Source: Trichoplax sp. H2 (lineage: Eukaryota). Taken from it: a DNA stretch of 64,000 nucleotides. The stretch's first letter is position 1. Every line of letters begins with the position of its first letter. The position numbers and the translations under genes were made by a program. The DNA lies in assembly GCA_003344405.1 (NCBI GenBank), contig NOWV01000109.1, forward strand, positions 124,001 to 188,000. Direction: 5' to 3'. The notes beneath the pieces were generated by a model. The model did not search any database. It saw only the letters and a list, made by a program, of their open reading frames with translations, and was not told the origin of the DNA. Shown piece after piece: positions 24,989 through 59,084 of this stretch.

Positions 24989-27900
24989 CTACATTAAATC
25001 AATTCTAGTTGTTGATACTTTCAAGATTTCATGGCAACGGTTTGTTGCAGATTCAGTGAAGTCTTTAAGCTCATCCAGAGTCTGACACAATCCAAGAATT
25101 GCCATTAGTCATTTCTTTCTACGTTAAAGTAAATTAATTAATTTTTAAAATCGAGCTTGTCATCATAGCATACCTGTTTCTTGAATTTTTCATCTTCAAT
25201 TGATTTCAAATGAATTAATACATTATAATAAGCTCCCCATATTGCAGCTTCTAAGCTACGACATCCGGTCTATTAAATTAATTTTAAAATCAGTATTTTA
25301 CATTAGTAATTCATATCAGTATTTAGGTATTCATAATTGTACACTAATAATTTATTATAAATCAGATTCTACATAGAACTCAAATATAAACTCGCAAATA
25401 ATACAGCATAGTCGTGTCACGCAGTGATGTCCGTGAAGCTATATTGATTTTGTTAATAATTAAATGATTGTTTACCAGCATTAATTAGTTATCTGGTGCT
25501 TTAAGAATTGTAATAAGTAATGAAGTGTTAATTGCAATTAGAGCCTACAATGTTGTGAAATGGTATTATCGTGCTTATGTGTCACATCATTAGCCGTTGT
25601 TAATTAATTAATTGCAATTAAGGTTGTTTACAAATATTAACCTATAGTGAACTATATAATTTATTGGTAAATAATTTCTCATACTAATGTATGTAAATCT
25701 CGTATAGCGATATTACATCATTGTTTATATGTGTACCACTTATCAGCGCCGAAAACTATAAAAAGCCTAAGCAGCTCTGCTGGTAATCAGTTAGTTCCTC
25801 AGCTCTTGTTGTATAAACAGGTATCTGCTTTACCTTAATAAACTTAATGTACAATTTTTATTAGAGTAACTTGTGTGGTTGTATCTTAGAATAGATCTCC
25901 ATCACTACGAAAGAGGTATACTTATTCTAGTAGAATTGTATCGTTCGCAGTGTTACTCAAACAGTAATGAGAAGAATACCGCGACAAATCGGCTTCTTAC
26001 TACTCTACGAACCTGGACGTTGGAAATAAATCCAATATCACAGTAATGAGCTAGTTCTAGAAATGGTGTCCAACACTTTTGGCAAGTTTTCATCATGATT
26101 AAAGGCACTTCTATGGCTCCTTTTAGCTCCTTTTGCTCTGCCGCTTTTTGCCTATAGTATAATTATAGATTCAGTAGTAATTAATCTAATACAAATTGAC
26201 TTAATAGTATTTCGCTATACAGTAGATAGCTTCATTAAACCTTACTTTTCTTTCTCCTCTTCTGTTAAAGCTGGTAACTTCGAGACGGCCTAGATTTGTA
26301 ATATAATAGCAGTATATTTATTCATCTATATATGGTAAGCGATAAATTAATGTATAATTAATTCAACAACAGCGTACTCTATAACTATTGAATGCATCTT
26401 CATATTTGTCAACTAGTGGCAAAATGTCTTTATAAGCTTGGTTAAATTGAGCAATGATAGGTTTTATGGTAGATTCTAAAGATTCAAATCGTTTATTCCC
26501 GTAGCTAAGCAATCCACCCATACACCCGAGCGATGCACCCTACATGATATAGAAAATATTAGATAGTGGGATTAGAAATAGATCCACTATGATAATCTTA
26601 TCAAAATATATTTCAGAAACTGATTGCATAACACTTTAAAATTTTATAACTAGATTGTTTATACTATTGGTATCTAAAGTTGATATTAATACATTATAGC
26701 TTACAATAGCTCCGATTGCAGCAGATGCTGAGCCACTTCCTGGTGATAACGTTCTGCTACCAATACTAGTAATAAACTTATTTAAACTCGTCGATACTAA
26801 AGGACCAGCGGCATTAAGATTTGTTTTATATCTTTTAAATAAGAATAAGATAGAAATAACGGTTTCCATCATTAGTAAATTCAAAAAGAAAAGAAAGATG
26901 TCATAGGAATATTTGCTTGTACTATATTTTAATGTGTCTACATTACTCGATAATTTTCTCGCTTGGATCAAAATGATTGATAGAATTGAGTCCCAAACGA
27001 TTAATTACCTTGACAAATAATGATAAAATGTGTTTCAATTTAGTATTGTATTTGATAATAAACATGCATAATGATTAGGGACTATAATGCAATCTTATAA
27101 TTTGTAAACGACCTAAATGGTCTTCTATTGAGTTGAACGTAATTACTAATCTAATCTTTTGATCTTCATTCAGAATAAAAAGATTTTCCTTTTCGATATA
27201 ATATTCAGCGGCCTTTAGCATTGCTTCTAAAGGTAGCACCCCAACAATTTCAGAACCAGTAACGGGTAAATTCAGCTCCTATTAATCGATTTAATGTCAA
27301 TATGAAATTTATTCGTCAATACGAAGAATAAATATACATCACAACACAACAGAATTTCATCTATTTCATCTGTTATTGTTATTATATCGATAAACTGTAA
27401 AGCGAAATTTGCTAAAGTACAGTTATTTCTAGAAAATAGCACTTCTAAGATAATTATAGATGCTTTACTACAAACTACCCTAATTTTTATAATATTTCTA
27501 TAATGCATTTTCTTGACTACTGTACCTTCGCATCCTTCAATACTTCTTCGAAGACAATATGCATCGGAGATGTGCGAAAATCATATAAATTGAAAGATGC
27601 TTGAGCTATATTATGATCTTCTAGATACCATCCTATTCCATGCACTTTCTTCATTCGACCCGGCTTTCATTTGTAATATCAACCATTGATGAATATTATG
27701 ACAGGTTATGCTGATAGTTGTTGAAGTATATCAAAAAACGATTTACCTGAGTTGGACCGCGGCCTCTTTCACGTATATTGGATGCAATGCGGTGTGCCTG
27801 CTCTTTTGTTCCAATCAAATTGACATTATAAGCAATCAAGTAAAAATCGCGAGCACCTATTAGAGTTGCACCCCATTTGGGAACAAATTTAGCTGGTCCA

Positions 27901-30900: not shown

Positions 30901-32547
30901 TAGAACTCATTGCTTAAAAACATAACACTGGGGATACTGTGCAATATGCATAGTTTGATTTTCAGTATCGTACAAATTTGTGTCAAGTGATTTTGATTTG
31001 TACACAGTATAGCAAGTGTTTAGTAATTTTGTAAAATGATTAATTAATACTAGTAGTAGGATTTTTGAATAAATGCGGTAACATCATTACTATAAGATTA
31101 GGCAAATGTGGTACATGGACTGCTTGAGGACGGACTGTTACCAGTTCAATCGCTATCAAATCATGAGAGAATATTAAGAACAATAAGGGAAACCCCACCC
31201 CTGCCGCTCATATCTCTAATGGCTGTTTATCATATTGACTTGTTTATGATGATGACGTACATTTACACAAAGCTTTGTACTTCAACTTGGGCGATTTAAG
31301 CTACTAGACTACGGATTTTCCTTTGCGAGAGAGAGATTAAAAACAGCGAAACAGATGGCGCTGGCACTAAAACGGTTTAAAATTAATATACTACAGAACC
31401 GTTAATTAATTCTTATTAAATCACTTTAAGACTCCAGTATAATTATTCTATTATTTGTATAAAGATCGGCGGTAAAAATGAATGCTAAACTAGTACAATA
31501 CTCTAGCATAAAGAGTTACATTAACAGAGCTTTCAAGTAGAGTCACAGTACCTATTCTTATATCGTACTTGATTAAAATAATTAGATCCTATACAGAACT
31601 TAGATATATACTGTATTTCTTAAACAAGCAATAAGGTAATCAATTACTGCATTGATTAGATCGGAAACTGATCTATAAAGTCACCATCAATCAATAGTAA
31701 ACGGATAATTTTGAGTTAGAGATACGTAATATACAACATACAAAATCAACAGTTTATTGTCAGCATTTCAATAAGATCATCATCTTCGCTATCTTTGTCT
31801 GATTTATGTATTTTTATCTGATATCATCTATAAAAGCCTAATTCTAATCACTATAATAGCAACATACGATAAAATACATGTAAGCTATGGGTTAGCGGCG
31901 ACTAAGGTTTTATTCTTTTCAATTCTTTTAGCAAATTTATTATTGAGATAGTTGAAATCTAATATGAGTAAAAAGCGCCTAAACTCCAATTTCTATATAG
32001 TACTATAAAAGTATTATCTGACCGTAATTAATGTATTGCCTTTGATATCTTTTACTTTTACATTTGGTAAATTAATCGTCGACATACTTTGACTTTACTT
32101 AATTGCCTCAAACTCTTTATTACTACCAATCAAATCTATAAAGTGACGTGAAATTTTTACGCCTTACAGTTAAGAAAATCGCAAAACTCTGATTTGATAA
32201 TTGTTATTCATAACCTTAAATCGGAGATAGCTTTCTACCTTTTATATTTTATTTACTTCAAAGATTAATGACCGTAAATTAAAGTTTTTACCTTTATGTT
32301 TGACCATATCAATGAATTCATGTGCTTGTAGAGCAGCATTCAAGGCCCCCTGTATAACGCTAGAAGGCGATCCTACAAATGTAAATACTGATCGATTTGT
32401 GCTTGGAGATGAGTTGAAATCGAGTAATGTGCATCCATCGGTATTTGTAATTGCATTAGCAATAGCATGGATAATTTTTTGATCTTTCCCTTCAGAGAAA
32501 TTTGGATCGCTTAACAATATTGCGCTTTCGTCGAACATCATGTCCAT
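24989..32547 (-). CDS. FTCD: Formimidoyltransferase-cyclodeaminase paralog B (intact 13-exon ORF, divergent cyclodeaminase active site)
   Basis: Start at ATG 32547, 32541 or 32538. Exon 1 ...[13 protein letters not shown]...[11 protein letters not shown]; exon 2 (~29982-30110) [13 protein letters not shown]; exon 3 IRAGEYEGL; exon 4 [20 protein letters not shown]...[65 protein letters not shown]; last exon ends TRIDLM-TAG (24989-24991). No frameshift or internal stop found. Confidence 0.92.
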
Positions 32548-34229
32548 GATCACGAATAATTGCCACAAATAGGTTATCGTCAATTTTATTTGTTGGAAAT
32601 AAAGTATATATGTAGCCTACTTCTAGTAAAAGAAAAAAATGAGATATGTAACGCCTTTACGTCTACAATAGTAATTTTCCAAGGACTTCTTAGAAATTCC
32701 CATAGAAGCACTTGAATAATCTCTCCAAATCATCTTATTGGCCATAGCAGAATGTTATTACACGTAGGCCAACTAAATACAATGAGTTTATACATTCTAC
32801 CGTGTTTGTGTACACATACATTATTCAACAGGCCGTATAAAATTAACTTATGACAGATTAATTGGTGAATGAACAATCGCATCAATACGTTATAGAAATT
32901 TACGATATTGCCCTAGGCAATCCATTCAATGATTTTGCTGTCGGTTATACACAATAATATCTCAATTTTGGGGATCTTTCGATAATATTTTTGCTTGATA
33001 ACCGTAAATTTAAAAAAATTATAGAAGTGTTTCAGTTATGAAGCACCCGTAACATGTATGACTTATAATTGGATTAAATTATCTTTATCTCACAAGCTAT
33101 CATTTCCATGACAATGCCTTCATTATTATTTTAACATAAATCATATGTATGTCCGTACTGGTCTTGGTCTGTATTGGCATCGTTATATAATTTAAAAATT
33201 ATTATACTGATATATACTCGTATGCAATGCTCTGCTATTAAAAATAATCACTATTACTATTAACATCAAATAGACAGTAAGAAATTGATCTTATTCAACC
33301 AAAATATCTTCAAGAAAATAGAGTAATTTAAATTTTAAATTTTACCACTCTAAGACGTAGCGCCTAAACTCAACCATCATCAAACATTAAAATAAAATAA
33401 AATAAAATAATGTAACGGGTTAAAACACAATGTATAGCTTTACCCTCCATCAAATCTCAAAAATAAACATAGAGTAGAACATATTAACTTCTGAGATATA
33501 TTCCTAATTCCTATTTCAGCCTCAGTACAAACTAGTAAATCAAATTAACGTTTTGAACTATACTATCTCCTTTATACTTGCTAATTGAACTTTATTGACT
33601 GTAAATTAGGGATTAAACTATCAAATTATACTTAAATTTTATATCAATAAACTAAGAAGCTGTGTATATGACAATACAAAGTTCAATCATCAGCTACTCT
33701 AGGTTCCCGTAACATTGAAGTAAAATAAATATCACAATTTCTATCGAATCTAAAGACTGCCCTAACCAATTCATCTACAGCCTACCATCCTAAAATCCAA
33801 TATTCGATAATCAGAACAAAATAGTATATCTCCTTACAAATGATACCGTATCTTGAAAACAATAATTATAAAAATTAGTCAACCTCTTGTTTAAAAATAT
33901 TTATCAAGCTTAATTAAAATTACTACTGAATCTATACAACATTAAAATAATTTTTTGTGTGTTTGTGTAGATATAATATATGCACTTTATGGTACATGGC
34001 ACCATAAATTACAGGAAATTGATCCCCATTCGCAGACATGTTTCAAACTCACATCTATTTTTAATTTCATAATTTATGGTTCTTCCAATGATGTAATCTT
34101 GTTTGACTCTAGCAAACTTTATTAAATAAAATATTGGCTAGCTGTAATTGTGGCCTCACTCTTTGAAATTCTCTTTAAAAATTTATCATCGAGATTGTTG
34201 ATATCTAATATGAGTAGAAAGTGATCAAG

Positions 34230-38200: not shown

Positions 38201-40013
38201 ACTTTGTTTTGAAGGTAATGCTGTGTAATGAAGACTACATTCATTAATGCGTACTCTCCTTAACCGATATTATGATACTACTGCGTTTACTATTTTTATA
38301 GAATTATTGATAATAGTAACTTGCTCTGAACGCAAATTTATACATAATACTAATCGCACAGCTAAGATAAGGTAGTCAATCAAAATCACAATTACAGTGG
38401 AGGCTTGGCGAAAATAGATCGATTAAATATTATATTATATAGGGAATATATTAAAAGCCTGTGGATATTCGACTCAAGGGAATAATGTAATGTACAGTAC
38501 AATTGACGTTCAACTAATTCAAGCAAGACCATCAATGCTTTATTCCGACGCATTAATTAATCAGATGGAAACCATACGACCATTTCTATTTACTATATTG
38601 AATTTTGCAGACAGTAAGCCAATAAAATGAAGGAAAAAAAATGATGTTGTAATTTTTTGTATTTTCTAAAAGTATGATATCGTCGTACTACCGTACATTT
38701 GTAAAATAGAAATAGCAGTCAAATGCAACATGATCACTTGCCATTAACATGTTAATAATGTAAACAGGAGTTGCTAGTATTTAACGCAAGAAGCAATCCC
38801 AAACTACGTCTTCTACTACATTACATAGCATCTAAAATACGTGTACAATAATGGTTGTGCAGTTTTCGTATTGTATAAGCGCTCTAGTTATCAGTAGATT
38901 GATGTATCCATTTTTTATATGGATGTCGTGTACTGACCTGGCACTTTCAGTTTATCAGCAAGTAAACTACCAAATTCTTTAGCACATTGAACGCATACAT
39001 CCATGGATACATTTTGAACAGGAACAAATGGGCATACGTCAAGTGAGCCTAAACGGGGATGTTCTCCTTTAAAATAGAAATAATCGATCATAAGCCCATC
39101 TTTAGTATTGCTTTACATGATGTGATTGCAATCTGTGTGCATCAAGCACTCCATTATTAACATCGACTACTATTATAATCTTTTTACATGATACATATTT
39201 AATTAATAGATTATCCTCCAGCAGTGACAACAAACACGGGTGAGATAGAATATTCGCCATCGTCTGTAAGGCCTTTCTACTTGTTCTTATACTCTATTCG
39301 TAATCCTATTTATTATGGTATTCAACGGTAGCCTATCCTAAAAAATACTATTATGATTCTTGGCGCAGCCTATCTACAGTGCTGTAGTACTATTCATTAA
39401 CATTGTCGTCTCTGTTAACTTCTTGCTTGGTTGTACAAATAGACAGCCAATGCAGTTAGCCAAAATCATACTGTCCAATCATCACTGATGCTAACTCGTC
39501 GATAGCGTATCTTGTAACGTTTTTTCACCATTGCATCTAGTCTTTCCTCCATCTGCCCATCCAGATCGACTAGAAAACTCATCAACACTGATGCAAACGG
39601 CACTTCGGATCATATCGGATATACAGCACAAATACGTTTCTAAACGATATGATCCGGCACTTTAAAATGGATGCCAATCACTGTCCTTAGCCACAAAGAT
39701 GGCTAATGATTATTCCATGTACGCTAGAGGCAGTGAATCAATCCAGCAAAGATATCCATTCTGTACCTTTATGATGTTTCATATCGATTAATGAGAAAGC
39801 TTGCAAGGCTGCATTAAAGGCACCCTGGACAACATTGCTTGGAGATCCAACAAAAGTGTAAACAGTCCGATTGGTACTTGTAGAGCAATCGATATCCAAC
39901 AACGAGCAGCCATCCGTACTTGAAATAGCTTTGGCTATAGCATCGATAACGGATTTATCAGTTCCTTCGGAGAAATTGGGTACACATTCAATGATGGCTG
40001 TCTCTGCAGACAT
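35219..40013 (-). CDS. FTCD: Formimidoyltransferase-cyclodeaminase paralog A (canonical, 13 exons)
   Basis: Exon 1 40013-39767 [17 protein letters not shown]...[11 protein letters not shown]; exon 2 39066-38938 [52 protein letters not shown] (second Asp at 36110-36112); [20 protein letters not shown]; ends FSVDSGS-TAA (35219-35221). Intron positions are the same as in paralog B. Confidence 0.95.
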
Positions 40014-40540
40014 GGTGATTGAGAAAGGTAAAAAGAGCAATCTTGCCTACCAGCAAGAAGATTGGTCAAAGCGGATCTGCTGATGTTATTGATAGTGAAA
40101 TGAGCACGGATTGTTATTATTTTTATGATGATTTGAAATGGCTATCTAGGGTGCCATGTAGTAGTGAATATTCTATACGATACTCTTATGATTGCATTAC
40201 GTAATGTAAAGACAAGTCACGACGAGAGGAAAAAAACATGGCATGATGTCGTGGCACTATGCTGACATTATTTTTGCTTGCAATTTGTAGTCTCTACTTA
40301 GTATGATGAAAAATGAACCATAGAGTAGACTACTCGCCTAACAGTGTAACAAGGACTGCTTAGACAACGGCTTCATCGTGTGTAAAATAGATGTCATGCT
40401 TAGCCATTTTCTCTTGTAATGTCCATCTGTCTGTGTCTGAAGAAGAAATCAAAACAACGTTCCGATTAATTCCGATCGGGCAAAAGCTCCAAATTAATGA
40501 CTGTAAATGAATAAGAATATCAATATGATTTGATAAATAG

Positions 40541-43444: not shown

Positions 43445-45050
43445 TCAGACTTTATACTGCGGAGGGGCACTAGTAGGGTAAGGATATTTTGGAGATACAG
43501 CACCATATCCAGTGGTGGTGGTGGTGGTCGTAATAGTAGGCCTCGTCTCGTTAACAATAGCGTACTGAGCTGTCGCAAGTCTTCGGCGACGAATACACAA
43601 TCCAAGAAGCGTTAAAAAGGTAAAGAATAGACCTAAGAGAAACCTGGAATAATATTGAATCAACTATTATTTCTTCACCTAGTAAATAACATCAGTATAT
43701 TACAAGAGGAATAACTGTAGCGAAGCAAATTCGCTTTTTGTCCATCAGAATAGTACACTTAAGATTAAACTTGAGCGTCAACGGTAATGTAAAGTTGAAG
43801 AACTATGTACGAAATAAAGGCTTTATCGGTATTTCTTGGTAACAACTGTTACTGCATCGCATCAACTTGATGCCAAAGATTATGAAATACCCGAAATCAA
43901 GGATAAGCTCATTATCGTAGTATAGTAAATAGAAGGAAATACAAAGCTGACGATAATACTTGACATTAATACTGACAAAAATAGAGTAGTTAGAATTCAC
44001 CAGCATGACAAAATGTGGGTAGATGAGTTGTAAGTAAATAGTCATTTATGATATTATTCGAAAGTGTAAAATGATGATTTCTATGCATACAACATATTGA
44101 TGAAATCTTGACAGCTACTCACTGGAAATACTCTGCTATACCGAACTGTGGTGATTAAAAGGTGGATGATACCTATTATTGGTATCCTTTAGCAGAACAA
44201 CTACTTACCAGAAGTACCAAACATGCCAGACAAAAGTACAGCAACCATACCCACAACAATATTGATAATTCAAGCAGTAATGGGACGCACTCCCATAGTA
44301 ACTGTAAAAGGAAATCAATACGTCATTAGAATGACATGACATGGTTGAAATAAATCCCTTTTCACTCGAATTGGACACCATTTTGCAATCAATGCCAAGT
44401 CGAGCTTCTTAATATGAGATTTTGACTATTTGATGAATTCTACTGTATGCTCTACTTCTAATCCATCATCATTTGTACAGATTTCTTACCATTTACGGGT
44501 AGCATTTGCCTGAAGATTTGGCATCCGTTCAGCAACATAACAAGGAGAATGAAAAAAATAGGAAAAAAATGAACGAAATGAATTGCCTAGCCCATGAATA
44601 TTATGTCCGTAATACAAGTACTTGTCAAAAACTCAAGCATCAAGTTAAATGCGACCAATCAGTTACGATCCATCCTGGAGTTTTACTGCTAGCATCATGA
44701 AGATATCCTTTTCATTTTGAATATTATCAGTTCTCTTTCTATACTATTCGTAGACGTATTCTAATATTAGTCTAGTGAGCAAATTGGCAAGCATTCAACT
44801 CCTTTCTATGGACCATCAAGACGATTGGTGTGAAATCGTAGACAAACATTTTACTGATCATCATGACTGTACTGTATTGACGATGCTATCGTTCAAGCTG
44901 CTTGCAAGTTTACAAATAGACAAAGGACAAATTAACATCCATTTTCAATCTCTACAATAGATCGTGATAGCCATATAAGTCAATTACCGTGTGAAAATGA
45001 ATGCTGATCATCATTAATGTAGCAAAAAAGAGCGTTTTGGAAATAGCCAT
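43445..45050 (-). CDS. Small single-pass membrane protein, WBP1/VOPP1/TMEM92 (Shisa-like six-cysteine) family, with PPxY motif; paralog 1
   Basis: Exons 45050-44988 (signal peptide MAISKTLFFATLMMISIHFHT), 44509-44490 (ANATRK), 44301-44209 (C-YYGSASHYCLNYQYCCGYGCCTFVWHVWYF-W), 43643-43445 (FLLGLFFTFLTLLGLCIRRRR...SAPPQYKV-TGA). All phases are consistent. Confidence 0.85.
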
Positions 45051-46402
45051 GGCTGATTTTGTGAGTGTCCTATCCTTGTTATGGTGCGTTCATAGAGCTG
45101 AGTTGGCTCCAACTTCTTCCTCTACTGTATGCGACAGTACGCCCGCTTGCCAGTCCTTTTAATCACTTCCGCCGACAGACAGACTGACGGGCCGAGTTCT
45201 GGATAGGCCAAGATTCCCTTGAACTCTACAGTACCCCTGTCTAGAGTCTACAGTACTGTAGAGTAGACTACTGTAGCATATACCGTACAGTATGTTTTAT
45301 GTAGTGTATGGCTCATTGTTGATGACAAGATTCCCTTGAACTCTACAGTACCCCTGTCTAAAGTCTAGAGTAGACTACTGTAGCATATACCGTATGTTTT
45401 ATGTAGTGTATGGCTCAGTGTTGATGACTGTAATGGTATCCAGGGATTTTCGACAAGTCCCGTTGTACTGTATTCCATAGCCGAAATTGAACAGCAAGAA
45501 AGTACTTTTTCCTCGCTTTCTTTGGACTGTATTCAATCCACTTCCAGCATTGATAGTGGTATATGTTATACTGTCGACTGTGCTGTACAGTTCTACAGTA
45601 TCCAGTACTACAGTCAAGAAAAATATTGAAAATGCCATTGCGTCATCGCCACAATGCCATGTTACNNNNNNNNNNNNNNNNNNNNTGAAAATGAATGCTG
45701 ATCATCATTAATGTAGCAAGAAAGAGCGTTTTGGAAATAGCCATGGCTGATTTTGTGAGTGTCCTATCCTTGTTATGGTGCGTTTATAGAGCTGAGTTGG
45801 CTCCAACTTCTTCCTCTACTGTATGCGACAGTACGCCCGCTTGCCAGTCGTTTTAATCACTTTCGTCGACAGACAGACGGATAGACCGAGTTCTGGATAG
45901 GCCAAGATTTCCTTGAACTCTACCCCTGTCTAGAGTCTAGAGTAGACTACTGTAGCATATACCGTATGTTTTATGTAGTGACTTTACGTACTAATATTAG
46001 TAACTTTAACACCCTTTATGTCGATTTGAATTACATATTTAAATAAAGCATCTTATTTGCAATAGACTGATACCAAATTTGTCTAATTTGGTGTTGAAAT
46101 TGTGTTTTTATATAACTTCAATCATCGTCAATTTTTTATGAGACACCCTGTATGGCTCAGTGTTGATGACTGTAATGGTATCCAGGGATTTTCGACAAGT
46201 CCCGTTGTATTCCATAGCCGAAATTGAACAGCAAGAAAGTACTTTTTCCTCGCTTCCTTTGGACTGTATTCAATCCACTTCCAGCATTGATAGTGGTATA
46301 TGTTATACTGTCGACTGTGCTGTACAGTTCTACAGTATCCAGTACTACAGTCAAGAAAAATATTGAAAATGCCATTGCGTCATCGCCACAATGCCATGTT
46401 AC
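44992..46402. other. Gap-flanking direct duplication (44992-45665 vs 45686-46402), probably two uncollapsed haplotypes across the N-gap 45666-45685
   Basis: Sequence right of the gap restarts at 'tgaaaatgaatgctgatc' (=44992) and runs to 'gccatgttac' (=45665), with SNPs and indels. It includes a second copy of most of the paralog-1 signal exon. Confidence 0.85.
45981..46150 (-). mobile_element. 170 bp insertion present in only one duplicate copy; one end resembles a Tc1/mariner-type terminus
   Basis: Absent from 'ttttatgtagtgtatggctcagtg' in copy 1. On the minus strand its end reads TA|CAGGGTGTCTCATAAAAAATTG. No matching second TIR is seen. Confidence 0.45.
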
Positions 46403-47099: not shown

Positions 47100-49398
47100 A
47101 TGGCGTCCAAATTATTCATTGCTGCTCTTATCTGCCTGTTCAATGTCTATCAGGTTAGAACTAGATCCATCTTGGTCTCCATCTTGGTCTCCATCTTGAT
47201 TCCATCTTGATTTGAGACGGAGATAAACTAGTGTAGCCAGTTGTAATTGACACCATCAAGTCGTAGTAGACTTCTCAAGTATGTCCATGATGGAACACAA
47301 CCAGTTAGTTGACTGAACTGATCCAATCGATGACTAGATTGAAGATTCACAACAACGATAGCTTGCATGCACCAACCCAATGCATAAAATAACCACTTCA
47401 GGATAGACAATGTGTAATGGATGATGAGTTCATATCGCGATCGAACATGAAGTAGCTGCTGCAGCAGATCCAATTCCGAATACAGTATTTCTGAGTTGGT
47501 CTCAAATTTCATGCTTACAACAGACGCCTTGACAGTCATGTTAAACTCTACAGTACTGTACAGTACTATAGAGCAAAGTCGGTAGCTGCTGCAGATCCAA
47601 TTCCGAATACAGTATTTCTGAGTTGGTCTCAAATTTCATGCTTACAACAGACGCCTTGACAGTCATGTTAAACTCTACAGTACAGTACTATAGAGTAAAG
47701 TCGGTTTCCATAGCCACCGTTCGTCTTAAACTTAAATAAACTTATCGTGGGGAATATTTCAGTAGTCTATCACTTATCCTACTAGCATGTTATATCGATA
47801 CAGTATGAACTGGATGGAATAAACCTTGTAATGAACGTTATGATTGATCTTGTTTCCATAGTCACCCTTCGTCTTCAACTAAAATAAACTTAACACTGGG
47901 AATATTTTAGTACTCCATTGCTTATCCTACTAGAATGTTATATCGATACAGTGTGAACTGGATGGAATAAACCTTGTAATGAACGTTACGATTGATCTTG
48001 TTTCCATAGTCACCCTTCGTCTTCAACTAAAATAAACTTAACACAGGGAATATTTTAGTACTCATTGCTTATTCTACTAGAATGTTATATCGATACAGTA
48101 TGAACTGGATGGAATAAACCTTGTATTGAGCGTTATGATTGTTCTTGTCGTAATAAATAATGCTGTCGTATTTTCACTCAATTTTAGGTATCTGCTCAAA
48201 TGGATCCATGGTAAGAATGACTCCTGCAATTTGCTAATGAGCAGTTGGATGGGAAAATGAATACACTAAAATGTCCACTTCTCTGAAGTCATATATCGTA
48301 TTCCGTAGAAAACTTGACATGTTTAGTGTATTCATCTTTCCCAATTAGATTCATGATATTTGACTTATGTTAATTAGTCTAGTTTTCACATGACAGGCTG
48401 ACAGACAACGCTTGTAGTACTTATATCACTATCACTGTGTTCGACCTCAGTACTGTGTTAGTGCCCTACAACATGGCTGTAGTACTGTACATTTTAAATA
48501 ATTATATGTTAGAGCATGCATTACTATTAGTCTCCTCTAAAATGGCGGCAGTACTGTATACCTGAAATGATTGCATGTTACAGTATGTATTAGTGTCCTA
48601 GAAATTAAATGACCGCAGTAATGCACGTACCTTTGAAATGATTCGATGTTGAAACATGTATTAGTGTCCTACAAAATGATTGCAGTACTGTACATTTGAA
48701 ATGATTCGATGTTAGAGCATGGTAAGGATGTAACGATCTTTTCCAAAAATAATTCATATCAGTATCCCGTTAAAGAACGGGTGCGTTGAATACTAATACA
48801 GAATTCCTATTAGCATGCGTTGGCTACAACTTGTTGACAGTCGATTAATAAATAAAGCTATTGTGAGTGCTGATCGAACTTTTCATACCTACTATAGCCA
48901 ATGTTTGATGCAAGAATATTGCTGTGGTGGAACCAGCTGCTGCTTCGCCTTCTATAAAGTCTGGTATTTCTGGTAAGTTGTAAATTAATTAAACATCAAT
49001 GCTGGTCAGCCAATGGAGTCGGTGTATGTGAAGTGACCCCCTGATGTTATCCAATTAATTATTGAATACTTAAACATGGCAGATAGTTTCATTTTCCTTT
49101 ATCTTTCTGTGGCATAGTTTGATTTATCTATTAATTATGTGAAGCTAGCTCTTACTAATCCGTAAAGACTTCTTGCTGTTACAAATGAACGCTATTCTAT
49201 CCCTCTACTAGGGCTTCCATTGGTTTCCTCATACTCGCCTTTGCTGCTATGATTACTTGGTTGAGATATCGCCGTATGCAGTTGGAACGAACACATTACA
49301 TCATTCTCCAAGGAGAAGCTGCACCCGGTGTCATCGAAAAGTTAGGGCTTTCGTCCAACTCCAACACTCAATTTTGCCCACCACCATACAAATCTTAA
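47100..49398 (+). CDS. Small single-pass membrane protein, WBP1/VOPP1/TMEM92 (Shisa-like six-cysteine) family, with PPPY motif; paralog 2
   Basis: Exons 47100-47153 (MASKLFIAALICLFNVYQ), 48188-48210 (VSAQMDP), 48898-48972 (C-QCLMQEYCCGGTSCCFAFYKVWYF-W), 49212-49398 (ASIGFLILAFAAMITWLRYRR...FCPPPYKS-TAA). Same exon/phase layout as paralog 1. Missed by the ORF track. Confidence 0.87.
47167..48150. repeat. Cluster of young tandem repeats in intron 1 of paralog 2: 4 x 12 bp, 2 x ~130 bp, 3 x ~148 bp
   Basis: (ccatcttg[g/a]t[c/t]t)x4 at ~47168-47212; 'gtagctgctgcag...agatccaattccgaatacag...aaagtcg' at 47452 and 47582; 'gtttccatag.cacc.ttcgtctt...gaactggatggaataaaccttgta' at ~47704, 47852 and 48000. 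Confidence 0.9.
48250..48343. repeat. Short inverted repeat (~26 bp arms) in intron 2 of paralog 2
   Basis: Left gggaaaatgaatacactaaaatgtc (48251-48275); reverse complement of 48316-48342 is gggaaagatgaatacactaaacatgtc. Confidence 0.8.
48445..48722. repeat. Degenerate ~60-70 bp tandem repeat (4-5 copies) in intron 2 of paralog 2
   Basis: Recurring 'ttagtgtccta.aaaatg...gcagtactgtaca.ttgaaatgatt.gatgtt.gagcatg'. Confidence 0.75.
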
Positions 49399-50138: not shown

Positions 50139-51140
50139 AGGAATATAGGAATTAAGATAGCGTCTCCAGCCAGAATAAGCTATACATTACTCAATTGCCA
50201 ATAATATAATTTGGTAGCTTATGTAGAGTAGTCGTGTTAATACGCATTCTATAAGGTGGTTGGTTATTCAGTAATCTATGGCTTGACAGTGTCCATGATA
50301 GCACAATTAAGTGTATGGATAAAAGAGTAATACTAGTAGATAAAACGATTACACATGAAAGTTCATTTTGAGAGTACTGGATGTAGTGGAAAGAGGTAGT
50401 TATATCGCAGACAGCTAAATAAGGAAAAACTTCAGCCATCATATTACTAATATACTAATATGCAATTTTGCACCTTTGTAGTCCTGATCGAATTTAGGGT
50501 AACATCTAATAAAAGACAAAAATCCGTCGGCATTTGATTACAATTCAATTTCAACCTTTNNNNNNNNNNNNNNNNNNNNAGGAATATAGGAATTAAGATA
50601 GCGTCTCCAGCCAGAATAAGCTATACATTACTCAATTGCCAATAATATAATTTGGTAGCTTATGTAGAGTAGTCGTGTTAATACGCATTCTATAAGGTGG
50701 TGGTTATTCAGTAATCTATGGCTTGACAGTGTCCATAATAGCACAATTAAGTGTATGGATAAAAGAGTAATACTAGTAGATAATAGAAAGTCAATAATTG
50801 CACGTAGAAATACGCACCTTCACTAAAGGGAAACTTGTCCGCAGAAAGCAATGCTACAAGTTATGGTAGTTTGTTACCTGAACTACTATATATGAACTAT
50901 GATTTTAAGTAGTAACTTATTTCCAACGATTACACATGAAAGTTCATTTTGAGAGTACTGGATGTAGTGGAAAGAGGTAGTTATATCACAGACAGCTAAA
51001 TAAGGAAAATCTTCAGCCATCATATTACTAATATACTAATATGCAATTTTGCACCTTTGTAGTCCTGATCGAATTTAGGGTAACATCTAATAAAAGACAA
51101 AAATCCGTCGGCATTTGATTACAATTCAATTTCAACCTTT
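50139..51140. other. Second gap-flanking direct duplication (50139-50559 vs 50580-51140), probable haplotype overlap across the N-gap 50560-50579
   Basis: Near-identical copies; the second carries an extra ~140 bp (50784-50923). Confidence 0.85.
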
Positions 51141-52147
51141 TAATTTATTTATTTATTTACAATCCAGTGATAGTCAAATAGCAAAACAGTATCACTATAC
51201 ACGATCATCATTTATTTTCTTTAATGATAAAGCATATTACTGTAGATTACAAGAACCAAGGTTGGTCTTTAATTATACATTCTATGATAATTTAATTGGC
51301 AATATTAACTTATAAGCAATAGAATAATCTATATATCTAGAAGTATATAGTATTGACTGCAGTGTACTAATAGAAATAGGAATTTATTTAATAAGAGGTA
51401 GTTTTAGTGTCCTCGACATTGATATTGTAATATTATCTTGGAATAAAAATGAAATATTCTATATCTAAAACGGTTGAGAAAGATCTAGCTTAAGCTAAGT
51501 AATACTTGTACATAAACGTAATAAAGAAAAATAATTTAATCTTTAATATGACAATAAGTATTTGACTTGTTATTTTAAGTTAGATACACAGGAGATCGAT
51601 TGAAAGTGCAGTTGTAGTAACTGAATGAAAACATACTCATACCAAGTCGTACTTTTGAAATCATAGATAAGCTTGGTGTAATACATAGTCATAATTAAAG
51701 CAGATTTTATTGTATTTAGAGTATTGAAATTGAATTTATAAATGTAATAACTAGTAAGATTGATGTTTTCGTATACTTAAACTATTTCAATAATTTATAA
51801 AAAAAATAAAGAGAGTCGGTAATAAAAAAGCTCAACAGATCTTTGACATTGCAAAACTTAACAAACGTATAATGACTACAAAGTCAAAAATCTGCATTAT
51901 CCAACTCAATCACTATCAAGTAATAGAACTAACGATGACTAATTATTTTAGCTAGTTGCAGAATTTTTTATATATATATTCAGTATGCCAACGTATACGC
52001 ATGTACGTTTAAGAACATGGAGAAAACTAGGCAAATCCAAGTTGTGATTGATTGGTAGCTCATCATTATCCTCATCTTTTCATAACTTATTGCACACATT
52101 AAATGTATCCATTCTCGGCTTTTCTATCTTGATTGCTACTATATCGG

Positions 52148-55100
52148 TTAACTAAGTGACATCACTAAAGTTAATGTAGCTGGATTACCAATTCGACTTC
52201 CTTTTAAAGTAACTTGATGAGGCTGATTTAAAGTGCTTGTATTGATTGTGGTCCATATTGCATCGATATAATCAGTACCAGTTACTATAAATTCAATTCC
52301 AATTTTCTAATCATACATATTACAGATAATAAAAAGAGAAGAAAATAAATTTATTCGTAGATTTAAAAGCTAGTTCATAACAGCTATCCTGTTATTAAAA
52401 TATTATTATTAGTTAATTAATTTAAACTAGCTACTCAGCTTTGATATACCATCGACATAATTATTTATCATCATATTCGTATAACATATCATTTCTTACA
52501 CCCTTAATCGATATCAAAAAGAAGATCAATAAAACTTTAAGCTACGCTGACCTACCTTGCAGTTTACTTCTGGATTAATAACACCTTCATCGCAACTATA
52601 AATTGGTGGCAACGTAAAATTAAAAGCTGTACTATTGCATTCAGAACATTCTGCCAATTCCTTAAATTCAAAATTGCTAGAATGATTTTTAAGAACAATA
52701 GTAAATTTCTTGCACTCAAAGCGTCGTCCGTTATCAGTATCTAGTAAACAAAATTTTGATGCTAATTCCATATATTCCGGAAAGTTATTCGAAAAACCAG
52801 GAATCTGATTTTTATTTCCTGATATGGTAAAGTTTAATGGTACAATTTCTAATGTCACATTTTTTGTCGTCTAAATATAGAGAGAAATAAAATCATGTGT
52901 TAAAATTTGCTGGAATTAAAATACAGTGCTTTGGTAGTAAGCTTAAATGAATTTTATTTGCTAATTATAATCAGAAATTAGTAATTTGCAATGGTAATTC
53001 TACACACAATAATAGCAAAGTGATAAACGATTAATGAATATTACTAGTGTTATATTATTTATCATCTACCAACCATTTGCTTAGCGCTAGTTTATGTTGA
53101 AAAAAAAATTCAAAGAGTATCTATTTGAATTATTGGCCATTGGACTTACAAATTCTAATTAAAATTTAGAAAACCATCGATTAATAGATTGTCTTATGTA
53201 TCGTATATTTGTATACAAAATAAATACTATTAAATATGGTTACATTAACGTACTTCTCGTGCAATTGGCTCCATACCAGCCTTCTTGACACCTATTAACG
53301 CAAAAATTGCAGGAAATATAAAACGTAAGATTGATATCAAAAATATTCGTGCTATGCTTAAAGCAAATTAGATAAATAGCAGATTAATATTTTATATATT
53401 ATAGGATTCGTATATCTACATAATTAAGTGTATAAATAAATGCTATACTGTAAAACAGAAATCTACTATATCATAGTAGCCTAAGTACGCAATTTATAAA
53501 ACAATAAATACGACTACAATTTTAAATTTTAGCCATAAATGTAAATACGAAAAGAACTATTTATAGCTTTAATAGGAAGCTTTATGGATATCTTATAAGT
53601 AATGCAGCATGGCTACGAAGCTTACATGCATTGTCCAGGCTCCTGACAGTAGCCATTGACTGGATGGCAGCCAGTTCGACATATAGCTGTTAATAGAAAT
53701 GATAATGCGAGTATTAATGCAAGCAGTTATAACATTCAGGAAATTCTGTAGGCAAGATATGAATTTTATTGATATTACTATCAAGCTAAACGAAGAGGCT
53801 TATGTTAGGACAGCATAATCGATTGCTTCGTAAATCTGCACTGGCGGCTCATGACACAAGCAGAGAAAGCTTTATTAAATTTTTATGGCTATAGTGAAAT
53901 ATTTCATGTTGCATCAACAATTTCGATTTAATGTTAAGGAGAAAGCTAAATAAGTATTTAAACTGTAGGCCCTTGTAATTTGGCAAGAAATTGATATTTT
54001 CTTTAATGAATATGCTATTTTATCTAATTTTAGTGGGATGATTAATACGACAAAGTTGACAAAACCTCGCATAACAATAAGTTAATACGGATATATCTGT
54101 TCTTAAAGATCACCTTAAACAAATCACTATGATTAACTAAAAATTCAACGTTGAACATGACTGATGGCAGTCGACAACTACGATCGAAATTAAGTTGTAT
54201 AATCACACTGTATAATAGTGACAGCATGTTAAGAAAGGAAATACGTATAAAAATGATAATTCGCTTAGATTAGAATAAACTTACGTTGATTGCATAATTC
54301 ACCAGTCCACATATTGCCACAAAAGAGATGGAAACGATAATATAACGCAGAATGGGAGCCAGATAGTCTTATAAGTCCACGATTTTTATTCATTAAATCA
54401 ATAGTTCCGTGTAGATTATCGACAACATCGTAGCCGTAGAAATCTTTATCCGTAACGCGAATCCGAACAGTAAACTTTCTCTATACGTAAGCAAGTCAGA
54501 AGGCAAGAGAGTATTTATTAGCCAAAATAAGGCGACTAAAAATTTTTCAAATATGGATACAATGCAAAATTGTCAATGCATGATTGAGTACAGTTGGCTT
54601 ATTTGCCTGTAAACTGTATTATTTATCTTAACTATTTTGGTTAATAATGATAGAGGTGGGGAAATAACTTTTGCGTTGCAATGACGACACAACTATAACT
54701 CTCTACTGTACTTTCCATGTTCGTCTATTTTTAAATCAATTTCACATAGGATAGCCTTGAAAATAATTTTACACCGCTACTCCTCACTCGTAATTCTTCG
54801 TGTAACTGGCTTACTGATTAGGATAATTCGGTAGTCTAAAGTACAGCACATAGGGCAAATAATCTGCATAAAATGTCTCGCCGTGATATAGCTGTCCAGA
54901 CTTTGTCAGTTATTAATTACTATTTATTCATGGTATCAAGCAAAGGTCTAATGCCAAGTAAAGTAAATACATAGTAAAGGAATATAGAATCAATGCTTTA
55001 GGCTTGAGTTTACAAATGATAAAGATTTTCTTTCAGCTTAGTCTTAAATTGGAGATAGTTTTTATATGAAACGAATATCCATCTTTTTAGCGCAATTATA

Positions 55101-57128
55101 AAGTTTGACTTCATGGCCATGATTTAATTTGCCTATTTTCATAAGAGAAATCCTTATTTATTTTTATCTATTACCAATCTTGTCCTTGCAATTCAGCTCT
55201 AAGTTATTCATCATAAAACGACATTCGAAAAATCTTGCACAGAGACAATTCTAGCAGGTATACTATGAATCTCATATCTCTTCAGTATTAAAATGTTAGA
55301 GATTAATGGAATGTACTGGCATAATCGAAATAAATTTCCTATCCGATAAAAATTGTTGTAAAAACAATCAGGACGTGTATTCATGTTTTTCTACTCTTAT
55401 TCATTCTTTTTATCGTAAATTCGATATTTAAATCATAATTATCTTGGGATGCCAATAACAAATGGAATAAAAGTGGAATTTCAAAAGTTTTTTAATAGAC
55501 AAGGATACCAAAGTGTCCTATGATATTATTAACAAGAATCAAAGTGATCTAACAAGAACTTCATTATTGATAATTTTTCGTCATTAAATGGATCGAGTTG
55601 TTTAGTAAGCCGAACGCCCAAACAGCTTAATATAAATAAACAACACGATGGCTATTTCATAGGATGGCAGTTTTACAACAAAATAACGAATAATGGCTTA
55701 TGCAGCAAAAATTGATCATATCGTCCATAAACTATATCGGATAAGCGCCACAGTAGTATAGTCCTTTTCCATGTGTTAACTTTTAACCTCAAACAGGTGC
55801 AGCCATTTGGGGGTATCGATATGTCATTTTTTCCATGCTACAACCTGGCAATGAAAAGAGCGCTATCCGATGTGATCTTCTAGAGCGCGTAGCAGTAAGA
55901 TCATATTAGTCTAACCTTGAATTCTAGATATCGTGAAAGAACTATATTGTCTAGACTTTAGAAGTACCAAAGTGCCATCGATGATCTCTAATGAACGATA
56001 CTCATACTATCGTACTTTAGTCATTCTTTGAATCAGTTTTGTTTAGAATAATAGGCATCATATCAATTTGGCGCCGAATTAACTCCAAACTTGTAGGTAA
56101 TATGATGAAAGTTAATAAATTTTGAAGATTAAATAGTACTAGAATAAATATTGAAAATGGCTTGTCAAATTCCCCATTGTATGTTCGTAAATTAGAGACA
56201 GATTTATGCGTGAATACATGACGGAGTAAAGCGAAGAAATAGGCACAGTTTAGGAATTAAGACCATCAATATTGGGGAGTGGCGAAAAAAATTCTATTTC
56301 CTGAACCTCTGTTTGCTTACAAGCGCATTTTACAATTAATTTAGGGTATGATAATATAGCCTCTTATACTCATATATACGGGTACACGTAGATACCGATA
56401 CTTATATGTCAGTCTTTGATATAGTCTACTATCTTAAAGATACATGCTAAGTATAAAAAATATCAAATCATGACTTACCTTAACGCGAAATAGTTTTAAT
56501 GTTACATCTAACTCATGATGAAAATACAATATTGGCATAGCGTCAGAGAAAGTTCCAAATTTTCTATCAGCATAACTACATGGATCAAGTTCGTCACCGA
56601 TACAAACATGGAAATCGTAATCACAATTTTCATCTAATATCCAATTATCGCATGCTTTTTTTTCCATAGTTTGACTACCGGCATTAATATAATTTTCGAA
56701 ATGGATATAAAGGATTATGTAATGCGTGCTGGATCGCAATTCTCTTCTTAACTGGAAATACAAAATTCAATTAGGTGTTGAACGAGATGAAAAAAATCGT
56801 AAAAAAAGATGTAAACTCTATTTTCCATCAAGTTATACAGATAAGTATTCATCATTTGATTCCGAGTAGTTGATATTTATTTTAAATGAATTTTTTTTTC
56901 CATTACGCAAGATTTATTACGTATCTATTTCAGAATAGCGCAATTACTGTGGTGATGTAGTTGCTATACTATCATGATATTATAATAATAGCGTTGCGCC
57001 GAATGATCGATGTAATACAATTTTTTTTAAGCTACTGCTGTTATTTTTACCTGAAGGTTTCTACCATGACCAAGATATGCCAAGTAACAGATTAGAATTA
57101 ATCTCACTAATAAAAAGTTTTTTAACAT
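52148..57128 (-). CDS. Secreted Notch-ligand (Delta)-like protein: signal peptide, MNNL/C2-like domain, collapsed DSL, one EGF repeat, second C2-like domain, no transmembrane segment
   Basis: Exons 57128-57051 (MLKNFLLVRLILICYLAYLGHGRNLQ), 56751-56479 (..IHFENYINAGSQTMEKKACD..NCDYDFHVCIG..PCSYA..), 54480-54285 (..FTVRIRVTDKD..ALYYRFHLFCGNMWTGELCNQ), 53686-53626 (PICRTGCHPVNGYCQEPGQC), 53291-53254 (MCQEGWYGANCTR), 17-nt exon 53086-53070, 52870-52556, 52306-52148 (..QVTLKGSRIGNPATLTLVMSLS-TAA). PIC..GC...G.C..PG.C.C..GW.G..C is the Delta/Jagged EGF1 pattern. Confidence 0.75.
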
Positions 57129-59084
57129 GATGGCTGAAATTTTATTCGCTCGCTAGAAAATGGTCTTAGCAAATAGATTGGTCTAATGAGCTGCATTCAA
57201 GTTAATAGGAAGAAAAAAATAAAATGCCAACTATTAAGGTTCCAACGGTCTGAGTAAAATGTTGAGACTATCGCGTTCATTAGCTCTTAATAAAGTAAAT
57301 TATGTATGTTTGCTAATAGAGCACCTAGGGATTTATTATAAATTTCGTTCAGTTGTCAAGAACTGTTTTGGTTGACTCTAACTGATGGCTGATTATTTAT
57401 TCGTAATCACCGTATAGTTCTCATAATAGCTCCTTGTGGCAATACATCATCGGACAAGCAGTTTAGACCACCCATCTATCATCAATAAGTACATAAGTCT
57501 TGAAGTCAAACTTTGATCTTCCTACTGCAGCTATTATTGTTTACTTATCGTTTCTCTCCATATTAAAACGTAAAAAGGGGCTACTCCAGTTCAAGGGTGG
57601 TGAATACTATAATTTATTTGTATTGATGAAAGATTGTTTTGTAAGATCTAAATTACTTTTTACGTCTTTATTCACCATTACATGCACAGTACTCTGCACT
57701 GTCGAATAGTCAAGCTGAGCAAAATTAAATAAATATGACGGACTTTGGTATGGCAAATATTTTAGATGTACTACCTAGTACGTGTAGTTCGTCGATGAAA
57801 AGCTACAGAGAGTAACTTTCTGTTTATTTCCATAATGGATTACTCCACCTTTCTTTGGTGGGTGGTATGCAGCCATTCGCTATACTTAATAAGTATCTTG
57901 GTCATGAGATCAAAACAAGCCAACAGCGATGACAAACTTGATTTGACAGAGTCAATGTTGTTCAAATACAACTCGATTCTTACGAAATGCAGTAACGGTC
58001 AGGGGCTAACATTAATCATTACAAAATCTACTGTCAGCTCTTTTGCTATTCGATGGCGTGATTTGGACTACTATCTATCTCCCAAACATAATTATACTGA
58101 GGTCCAATTCTGATTGATCATAACGATTATAACTATCATCTACTCTTCTTACAAGTAGTGATGCAATAGGAATTGAGAACAGTCCTATATGAAAGAGTTA
58201 TAGCCCAATAAATGTTATCTTTAGGGGACTAGTGATGAAAGTGACAAGTTGATCGAGAATCTATCATAAAAGTGTTGCTAATGAGTCATTTTCTATTCGA
58301 TTACCAAGCAGTAATTCAAAGATATCGCTAATTAATATGGGAATAGTTATATTATTTCCTTATTAGATCAAAGGAGATATGGGTTGATGATGAGGATGGG
58401 ATTTTTAAAGGATTAGATCAATACTTATTTTAGTGCAGTTTAGCATAGAGAAGAATAATGAAATCCACTTCAATAACTAAATCATACAATCGATGGCTAA
58501 AAATGGCAGGCAAATCATTGGGTTATAGGATAAATTAAACAAATTATATTATAACCAAACACGAACAATAACAACGTGTCAAAATTTTCCTTGGCAGAAT
58601 ATCATATTTTTCACGTTATCCGATATCAACAGTTGCCTCTACCGTAAACAAGATTACTCATCTTTGAATATTAAATTGAAGCAATAGGAAGTGACTAATA
58701 GCCTTTAATGCCTCGATACAGATTCGTCAATTATTATTTTTCTGTTCTAGCGCATTTATTCGCTGTTATGGCTAAGATTTTGCTATCTTAATCGTTTCCT
58801 CTCCACCCCTTCTACCTACCACACATATTACATATCGTAGTTCTGACTATTACAACTTATACTTAAATTATTTATTTGCCCAATAGTACTGCAGTCATCT
58901 ACCGGTATTTTTAATTTTAATAACTGGTCCAACGAATGTTGACTAAATTAACAGTATCCATTTAAATAAGATCGTGAGTCATTGTGTATTTGTGTGTTAA
59001 TTTGTCCGCCAAAACAGTAAATTTAGAATAGATTAGGAGTGCCCTTATAGCCTCATCTATTGCAATAGTTGTTATGGAAAGATC

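Follow-up and report, generated by a model that had tools for sequence, protein, structure and literature searches.

TrispH2_007137 of Trichoplax sp. H2, a gene likely derived from a Delta-type Notch ligand and predicted to code for a secreted protein without DSL core or anchor

The window analyzed here, a stretch of 64,000 nt from Trichoplax sp. H2 (positions 124,001–188,000 of contig NOWV01000109.1), contains gene TrispH2_007137 on the minus strand (coding sequence, CDS, 57128..52148). We consider it rather likely that this is an expressed placozoan gene derived from a Delta-type Notch ligand, coding for a secreted glycoprotein of 374 aa that lacks both the DSL core and a membrane anchor; the loss of DSL is known from Trichoplax sp. 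H2 alone. The first-pass annotation of the window had proposed a soluble derivative of a Delta-type ligand, and our results agree with it in that the MNNL/C2-like fold and the first EGF repeat of the ligands (EGF1) would be retained, and the DSL core, the EGF array and the transmembrane and intracellular domains lost. To our knowledge, the MNNL/C2-like domain has been studied only within membrane-anchored ligands; a conserved and cell-type-specific secreted protein with MNNL and EGF1 but a deleted DSL would thus constitute a natural test of the C2 module in the absence of DSL or of a pulling force, as well as an example of the re-use of Notch-ligand modules early in animal evolution.

Gene model of TrispH2_007137

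The window consists of AT-rich eukaryotic DNA (GC about 30–35 %). Exon 6 showed 100 % identity to a public protein (P0001, hypothetical protein TrispH2_007137, 352 aa), and the peptide strings quoted in the first-pass annotation were found in minus-strand frames where it had placed them. The structure of the gene was examined with contigs from four public runs (X6, X13, X14 and X15) placed on positions 51800–57400. Run X6 is registered as random-primed RNA-seq; the RNA status of the other three is a guess, and they may be DNA. Contigs from X6, with depths of 18.5–80, crossed the introns at five joints (Table 1), all of them with CT..AC ends on the plus strand, which correspond to GT..AG on the strand of the gene. 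Another X6 contig (depth 80.1) passed from 53254 to 52870 with five letters in between (AAATT on the plus strand). These letters match the minus-strand sequence AATTT at 53154–53150, flanked by AG and GTAAGT, which indicates a micro-exon of 5 nt. Six of the seven introns are therefore backed by RNA contigs of this run; all seven have GT-AG ends, and the eight exons, once joined, form a single open frame of 1125 nt that codes for 374 aa plus the stop codon. The junction between exons 6 and 7 and the stop codon were set from GT-AG sites, the phase-0 fit and the public model. The junction 54285->53686, which had been predicted from the sequence, is thus joined by RNA. The prediction also included an exon of 17 nt: a small exon restoring the frame is indeed needed, and 5 and 17 are equal modulo 3, but its size is the 5 nt seen in the RNA.

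The public model omits exon 4 (61 nt) and the micro-exon (5 nt), and takes exon 5 out of frame. Since the two omitted exons add up to 66 nt, P0001 is back in frame downstream, at the cost of the EGF. The public model of 352 aa is consequently wrong in its middle part, and the RNA-supported CDS codes for 374 aa. Because the EGF exon was dropped after missing the 5-nt micro-exon, domain surveys of placozoan Notch components would miss the EGF of TrispH2_007137.

Two exonic differences separate the X6 contig from the window, at 57103 and 56509; one of them replaces Arg9 of the signal peptide by Lys, and the other is synonymous. Upstream, at least 134 nt 5′ of the start codon (57129–57262) are included in the RNA contig, and this leader holds an out-of-frame ATG whose short open reading frame (ORF) overlaps the main ATG.

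Domains retained and lost

The only hydrophobic stretch of the deduced product is N-terminal, with a Kyte-Doolittle value of 1.8 at residues 1–19, the next best window reaching 0.79; apolar runs do not attain 12 residues, and the mean hydropathy of the last 20 residues is 0.44. This profile indicates a predicted signal peptide (residues 1–22) and neither a transmembrane segment nor a GPI-type tail. That no hydrophobic helix precedes the stop codon, as also noted at first pass, applies to the annotated 3′ exons, which are those without RNA contigs. The mature chain contains 18 Cys, an even number, and the protein has a total of seven N-x-S/T sequons, both of which suggest a secretory character.

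Residues 24–182 probably form an MNNL/C2-like domain, as judged by comparison of predicted structures. A structure search of the ESM Atlas with this part of the Atlas model for P0001 returned Delta-like clusters in 10 out of 10 rows, and in all of them the aligned part corresponds to MNNL (PF07657), with a TM-score by query of 0.68–0.75 over 149–157 residues, which meets the bar for naming the fold. Likewise, MNNL/DSL clusters were at the head of the Atlas feature search with the N-terminal query, the best of them being an MNNL+DSL cluster (score 0.89, 176 shared features).

At the position where DSL starts in the canonical ligands there is a single C-x8-C loop (Cys171–Cys180), which is followed, after four residues, by Cys185, the first Cys of an EGF. 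The 20 coding residues of exon 4 were used as a query against PDB, and the nine matches were all to Serrate, DLL4, JAG1 or DLL1 (E 0.0016–3.2), aligning to the EGF situated directly after DSL, with the same spacing C-x3-C-x6-C-x5-C. The first-pass proposal of an EGF of Delta/Jagged type after the gap is consequently supported. In Serrate (7alt_A), the motif C-x3-C-R-P-R occupies positions 167–174 and the first Cys of EGF1 is at 205, 37 residues past the second DSL Cys, versus four in TrispH2_007137. On this alignment, about 33 residues, with DSL cysteines 3–6 and the receptor-binding core, are gone from the protein.

Neither the seven exon translations nor seven intron ORFs matched the DSL domain PF01414. 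An additional DSL exon within 53687–54284, which would have changed this picture, was not found: the X6 contig joins straight across (54285/53686), and none of the seven minus-strand intron ORFs matched any Pfam family at E ≤ 10. The absence of the Notch-binding core, already pointed out in the first-pass annotation, is therefore upheld. The EGF array, including the EGF2 of the DOS motif, is also missing, the RNA running from the EGF to the micro-exon and then to exon 6; a six-frame pattern scan of the 64-kb window for further EGF-like exons flagged 23 ORFs, only two of which match, and these hold exons 4 and 5. In terms of the DSL family of Notch ligands, the product shows the MNNL/C2-like fold and the ligand-type EGF1 and lacks four of the six defining features (the MNNL profile PF07657, the six-Cys DSL, the EGF array, and the transmembrane and intracellular domains), so it was filed as a Delta-derived protein and not as a DSL ligand.

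An architecture with MNNL directly followed by EGF1, in an early-branching lineage such as Placozoa, could also be a relic of an ancestral ligand that preceded the acquisition of DSL, as the first-pass annotation had contemplated. However, complete Delta genes with DSL occur in sponges and in Trichoplax, according to excerpts of Gazave et al. (2009; PMC2770060) and of PMC12166595, which makes DSL older than the lineage of TrispH2_007137, and a canonical placozoan Delta, TrispH2_000422, is named in the excerpt of Najle et al. (2023; PMC10580291). Besides, the persistence of the C-x8-C loop in the DSL position and of the post-DSL EGF1 fits a deletion, and the relatives of the gene are limited to exon-sized fragments and a placozoan orthogroup. 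Since DSL is older than placozoans and its flanks persist in the gene, we find a pre-DSL relic scarcely credible.

Residues 218–374, after a linker of four residues partly encoded by the micro-exon, make up a beta-rich domain of 157 aa with six Cys and six of the seven sequons, predicted to be N-glycosylated. The first-pass annotation had seen in it a second C2, with an echo between the ends of both beta-rich domains. The protein could accordingly have a C2-EGF-C2 organization originated by internal duplication, in which the C-terminal domain would be a very diverged second MNNL/C2 and the protein would bridge two membranes. In line with this, each of the domains is split by one phase-0 intron (91+65 and 105+52 codons). 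An Atlas feature search with residues 196–352 of P0001 also gave scores of 0.86–0.87, retrieving the same MNNL-only cluster as the N-terminal query (0.87, 152 shared features) and the same bacterial C2 cluster (0.86), and one of the structural rows was a plant lipase C2 (TM-score 0.54). Nevertheless, all the structural rows for the C-terminal query (TM-score 0.49–0.54) fell under the naming bar and were a mix of unrelated beta-sandwiches from cytolysins, C2 and GH2 proteins, and, by the statistics of the tool itself, a feature score has to reach 0.9 to count as more than a lead. Moreover, the N- and C-terminal domains did not show similarity to each other beyond chance (best BLASTP E 1.3; hhalign probability 0.1 %; Smith-Waterman z of 0.46 and 1.48 versus 1000 shuffles), and their Cys patterns differ in number, four versus six, and in spacing. 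An internal duplication was thus rejected at the sequence level, the echo is at chance level and the label of C2 for the C-terminal domain, with generic beta-sandwich matches of TM-score about 0.5, was not sustained; we regard the C2-EGF-C2 organization as unlikely. A search of PDB with a profile of this domain retrieved only parvalbumin (E 0.11), over an L-L-D-x-D-x-G string. This match was treated as due to chance, because the domain is Cys-rich and beta-rich; the string also lacks the acidic residue at loop position 12 that we take to be part of the EF-hand consensus.

Several results weigh against a Delta-derived, DSL-less secreted protein. First, this architecture is known from Trichoplax sp. 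H2 alone. Second, the evidence for the MNNL fold compares a predicted model with other predicted models, the Atlas model for P0001 having a mean pLDDT of 0.63, and the AlphaFold2 models were too poor to check the folds, both for P0001 with five fragments of relatives (pLDDT 35.8) and for the C-terminal 157 aa with two fragments (34.5). Third, the N-terminal domain was not recognized from its sequence: P0001 did not match any Pfam family at E ≤ 10; the seven exon translations did not match MNNL, the sole match being a sub-threshold EGF_Teneurin (E 0.23); neither did five exon-sized fragments of relatives (P0002 to P0006), with only a sub-threshold DUF4734 on P0002 (E 0.31); and a phmmer search against 1.84 billion representatives did not retrieve any Delta or Jagged, its four matches being all exon fragments. 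Word-based sequence searches did not find MNNL or DSL either, and PDB searches with P0001, an exon 2 profile and exon 3 produced chance matches only. The MNNL-like domain proposed at first pass is supported as a fold, with no counterpart in the sequence profiles. Fourth, spliced contigs came from one of the four runs, the other three contributing a few unspliced pieces, such as 53153–53337 and 53546–53734 in X15, and zero joints. Finally, no contig of the four runs covers 51800–52734, with the exon 6/7 junction, the stop codon and the poly(A) end, and, because of this lack of RNA cover, an isoform bearing a transmembrane segment may exist. The chance matches discarded from the PDB searches, including those with the exon 5 ORF, were to hemolysin II (E 0.6), thiaminase (E 0.34), a sensor protein (E 1.1) and a proteasome subunit (E 0.072).

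Relatives, expression and possible roles

Sequence searches for relatives beyond P0001 identified a few exon-sized fragments, 33–69 % identical to exons 2 and 6. Identity over exon 2 was 69 % for P0002 and 33–35 % for P0004 and P0005, which are probably from a paralog, and the four Cys of the MNNL domain were invariant in the alignment of exon 2 with these three fragments. In turn, exon 6 was 54 % and 53 % identical to P0003 and P0006, respectively, with its six Cys invariant. The conservation of Cys in the fragments suggests purifying selection. A tblastn search of the window with all the fragments, looking for a paralog, found only TrispH2_007137; a weak match at 43782–44039 contains a stop codon and was dismissed as noise. 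Scans of metagenomes for DNA of an ortholog did not yield any relative.

According to excerpts of the text and supplement of Najle et al. (2023; PMC10580291), TrispH2_007137 is included in orthogroup OG_10267 together with Hhon_g10400.t1 and HoiH23_PlH23_002989, with no T. adhaerens member listed. The next orthogroup, OG_10268, contains Hhon_g10401.t1 and HoiH23_PlH23_002990, with the label DLL1, and does not list any Trichoplax member. TrispH2_007137 belongs to module TrH2.blue, labeled as fibre (membership 0.848), and its orthologs Hhon_g10400.t1 (0.917) and HoiH23_PlH23_002989 (0.969) belong to the fibre modules of their own species, so that membership of fibre-cell modules spans three placozoan species; the genes of OG_10268 are also in “blue” fibre modules (0.804 and 0.731), making five out of five genes blue. 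The canonical placozoan Delta is a different gene, TrispH2_000422, and is expressed in peptidergic progenitors, in contrast to the fibre cells of TrispH2_007137; in the same study, lower epithelial cells and gland cells show broad expression of Notch, and peptidergic cell numbers in Trichoplax sp. H2 are under Delta-Notch control.

To date, apart from the exon-sized fragments, the gene is known only from placozoans. No paper in the searched literature names TrispH2_007137, and nothing was found there on secreted DSL-less MNNL proteins, beyond general papers on the evolution of Notch. The relation to Delta is thus not described in the searched literature, although it had already been flagged by automatic labels in one supplement (excerpt of PMC10580291).

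These data also bear on whether the gene is decaying or misassembled, in which case the product would be non-functional or the true gene would continue into unseen exons. RNA contigs of the four runs leave the 3′ third of the gene uncovered, the public model and the RNA disagree, and no T. adhaerens member is listed for OG_10267 in the excerpt of PMC10580291. On the other hand, the frame is open over eight exons and depends on a precisely spliced micro-exon of 5 nt, all the Cys are conserved in fragments with about 54–69 % identity and are even in number (18) in the mature chain, orthologs are annotated in two other genera and co-expressed in the same cell type (PMC10580291, excerpt), and there is no other EGF-like exon in the 64 kb. 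In view of the open frame dependent on the micro-exon, the conserved Cys and the conserved cell-type expression, a dead gene is very improbable.

What a Delta-derived protein of this kind might do can be approached from the parts it lacks and those it retains. Notch trans-activation needs a ligand that is membrane-anchored and endocytosed, and both the C2 and the DSL surface take part in contacting the receptor. Having neither a transmembrane nor an intracellular domain, the predicted product could not be pulled by endocytosis and, with the DSL contact surface also gone, could not operate as a canonical trans-activating ligand; given these losses in the deduced sequence, TrispH2_007137 is probably not a canonical ligand. 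We tentatively propose, with slightly less than even confidence, that it acts instead independently of Notch, as a putative extracellular factor of fibre cells. The C2-like domain would attach to a surface of membrane lipid or glycan, and a second binding site would be provided by the glycosylated C-terminal domain, resulting in a matrix or bridging protein. Fibre cells are mesenchyme-like and touch every other placozoan cell type, in animals without neurons or a basal lamina. A functional analogy could be drawn with MFG-E8 and EDIL3, secreted proteins of phagocytic or mesenchymal cells with EGF and lipid-binding discoidin domains, but it does not imply homology, since discoidin is not MNNL/C2.

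Alternatively, the product might be a soluble modulator or decoy of Notch, if the C2-like domain and EGF1 still touched Notch, through the C2 contact described in complexes of ligand and receptor, or membrane Delta, tuning signaling in the epithelia contacted by fibre cells. The DSL core, which is absent here, is one of the two receptor contact sites in the DLL4-Notch1 and JAG1-Notch1 structures (4xl1 and 5uk5), both of which are among the PDB matches listed for exon 4, and the single EGF left makes for an incomplete EGF1-2 (DOS) surface. The parts retained are, nevertheless, exactly the N-terminal modules of the ligands, and such a role would agree with the broad expression of Notch in lower epithelial and gland cells and with the control of peptidergic cell numbers by Delta-Notch (excerpt of PMC10580291), as well as with the precedent of vertebrate Delta3/DLL3, which has MNNL without DSL and is counted among the Delta ligands in the excerpt of PMC12166595. 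Against it, the genes co-expressed with TrispH2_007137 are matrix and lysosomal ones of fibre cells and not genes of the Notch pathway (PMC10580291, excerpt). Overall, we consider a weak, non-activating Notch modulator the main alternative, although a rather unlikely one. More speculative, and quite unlikely, would be the secretion by fibre cells of a free “C2+EGF1” ligand module acting at a distance. It might diffuse and bind Notch or Delta on the epithelia without activation, or form a lipid-sensing bridge in which the C-terminal domain is a second C2, diverged beyond recognition; if true, the lipid- and receptor-binding C2 module of Notch ligands could work alone, outside juxtacrine signaling.

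Compared to the canonical Delta/Serrate/Jagged ligands (DLL4, JAG1 and Drosophila Serrate; PDB 5mvx, 4cbz and 7alt), the Trichoplax protein is alike in the signal, the MNNL/C2-like fold, the C-x8-C at the start of DSL and EGF1, and differs by the absence of four of the six DSL Cys with about 33 residues, by a single EGF instead of an array, by the lack of transmembrane and intracellular domains, and by an unrelated C-terminal domain of 157 aa. Other relatives of Notch ligands also depart from the canonical layout. DLL3 is a non-activating, cis-inhibitory ligand with six EGFs and transmembrane and intracellular domains, which acts inside the cell or in cis. The secreted DSL proteins of C. elegans (DSL-1) keep DSL and lack MNNL, and are thus the reverse of TrispH2_007137, with MNNL-like kept and DSL lost. 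In turn, DLK1/2 have neither MNNL nor DSL, but an EGF array is retained together with a transmembrane segment. The nematode proteins and DLK1/2 share with TrispH2_007137 the condition of Notch-ligand relatives with a partial canonical architecture, and some of them are soluble. The nearest analogy is DLL3, with MNNL present and DSL absent or degenerate (PMC12166595, excerpt), although it is anchored, whereas the Trichoplax product would be soluble with one EGF; orthology is not implied, and the DLL3 label is an automatic best match. In feature space, the nearest neighbor of both halves of the protein is the ESM Atlas cluster “MNNL domain containing protein” (154 aa, 63 members, mostly arthropod records), with MNNL but no recognized DSL; no EGF1 or C-terminal domain is recorded for this cluster, whose members may be partial gene models.

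Table 1. Exons of gene TrispH2_007137 in the window. Joints are those of the X6 RNA contigs.
Feature	Coordinates	Strand	Content	Basis
5′ UTR	reaching at least 57262	-		X6 RNA contig
Exon 1 (CDS)	57051..57128	-	ATG at 57128 (first in-frame); 26 codons; predicted signal peptide	GT donor; joint 57051/56751
Exon 2	56479..56751	-	91 codons; first half of the probable MNNL/C2-like domain, four invariant Cys	Joints 57051/56751 and 56479/54480
Exon 3	54285..54480	-	196 nt; second half of the probable MNNL/C2-like domain, ending in the C-x8-C loop Cys171-Cys180	Joints 56479/54480 and 54285/53686; Cys spacing; structural alignment range 24-182
Exon 4	53626..53686	-	61 nt; first four Cys of Delta/Jagged-type EGF1; absent from P0001	Joints 54285/53686 and 53626/53291
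Exon 5	53254..53291	-	38 nt; last two EGF Cys (C-x8-C with G-W-Y-G); out of frame in P0001	Joints 53626/53291 and 53254/53154
Micro-exon	53150..53154	-	5 nt, AATTT; brings the EGF and the C-terminal domain back into one frame	Joint 53254/53154; X6 contig 53254 to 52870
Exon 6	52556..52870	-	105 codons; bulk of the C-terminal beta-rich domain, six conserved Cys, conserved N-x-T sequons	Joint at 52870; alignment with P0003/P0006; 100 % identity to P0001
Exon 7	52148..52306	-	52 codons plus stop (52148-52150); last part of the C-terminal domain, without a hydrophobic tail	No RNA contig

Neighboring features of the window

Upstream of TrispH2_007137, three minus-strand exons (26639–27004, 32245–32616 and 39741–40046) suggest the presence of two tandem formimidoyltransferase-cyclodeaminase genes: two of them match FTCD_N (E 3.5e-22 and 1.1e-26) and one matches FTCD_C weakly (E 0.00094, below the cut-off). 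The order of the genes in the orthogroup list of PMC10580291 (excerpt) fits this interpretation.

Closer to the gene there is a pair of similar Cys-rich exons in opposite orientation and about 4.5 kb apart (44208–44408, minus strand, and 48797–48973, plus strand), in which a CC..(C)C motif precedes an aromatic hydrophobic stretch and whose only match was a weak one to WBP-1 (E 0.33). In both cases, the exon that comes next ends in a motif rich in proline and tyrosine (43448–43663, minus strand, and 49189–49395, plus strand), and one of the two loci may correspond to the neighbor TrispH2_007136. The same region contains local direct repeats of 83–238 nt with 64–100 % identity (44992–46402, 47458–48146 and 50139–51140), some of them beside N runs that represent assembly gaps near 45.6 kb and 50.5 kb, and a unit of 148 nt is present in three tandem copies at 47704–48146.

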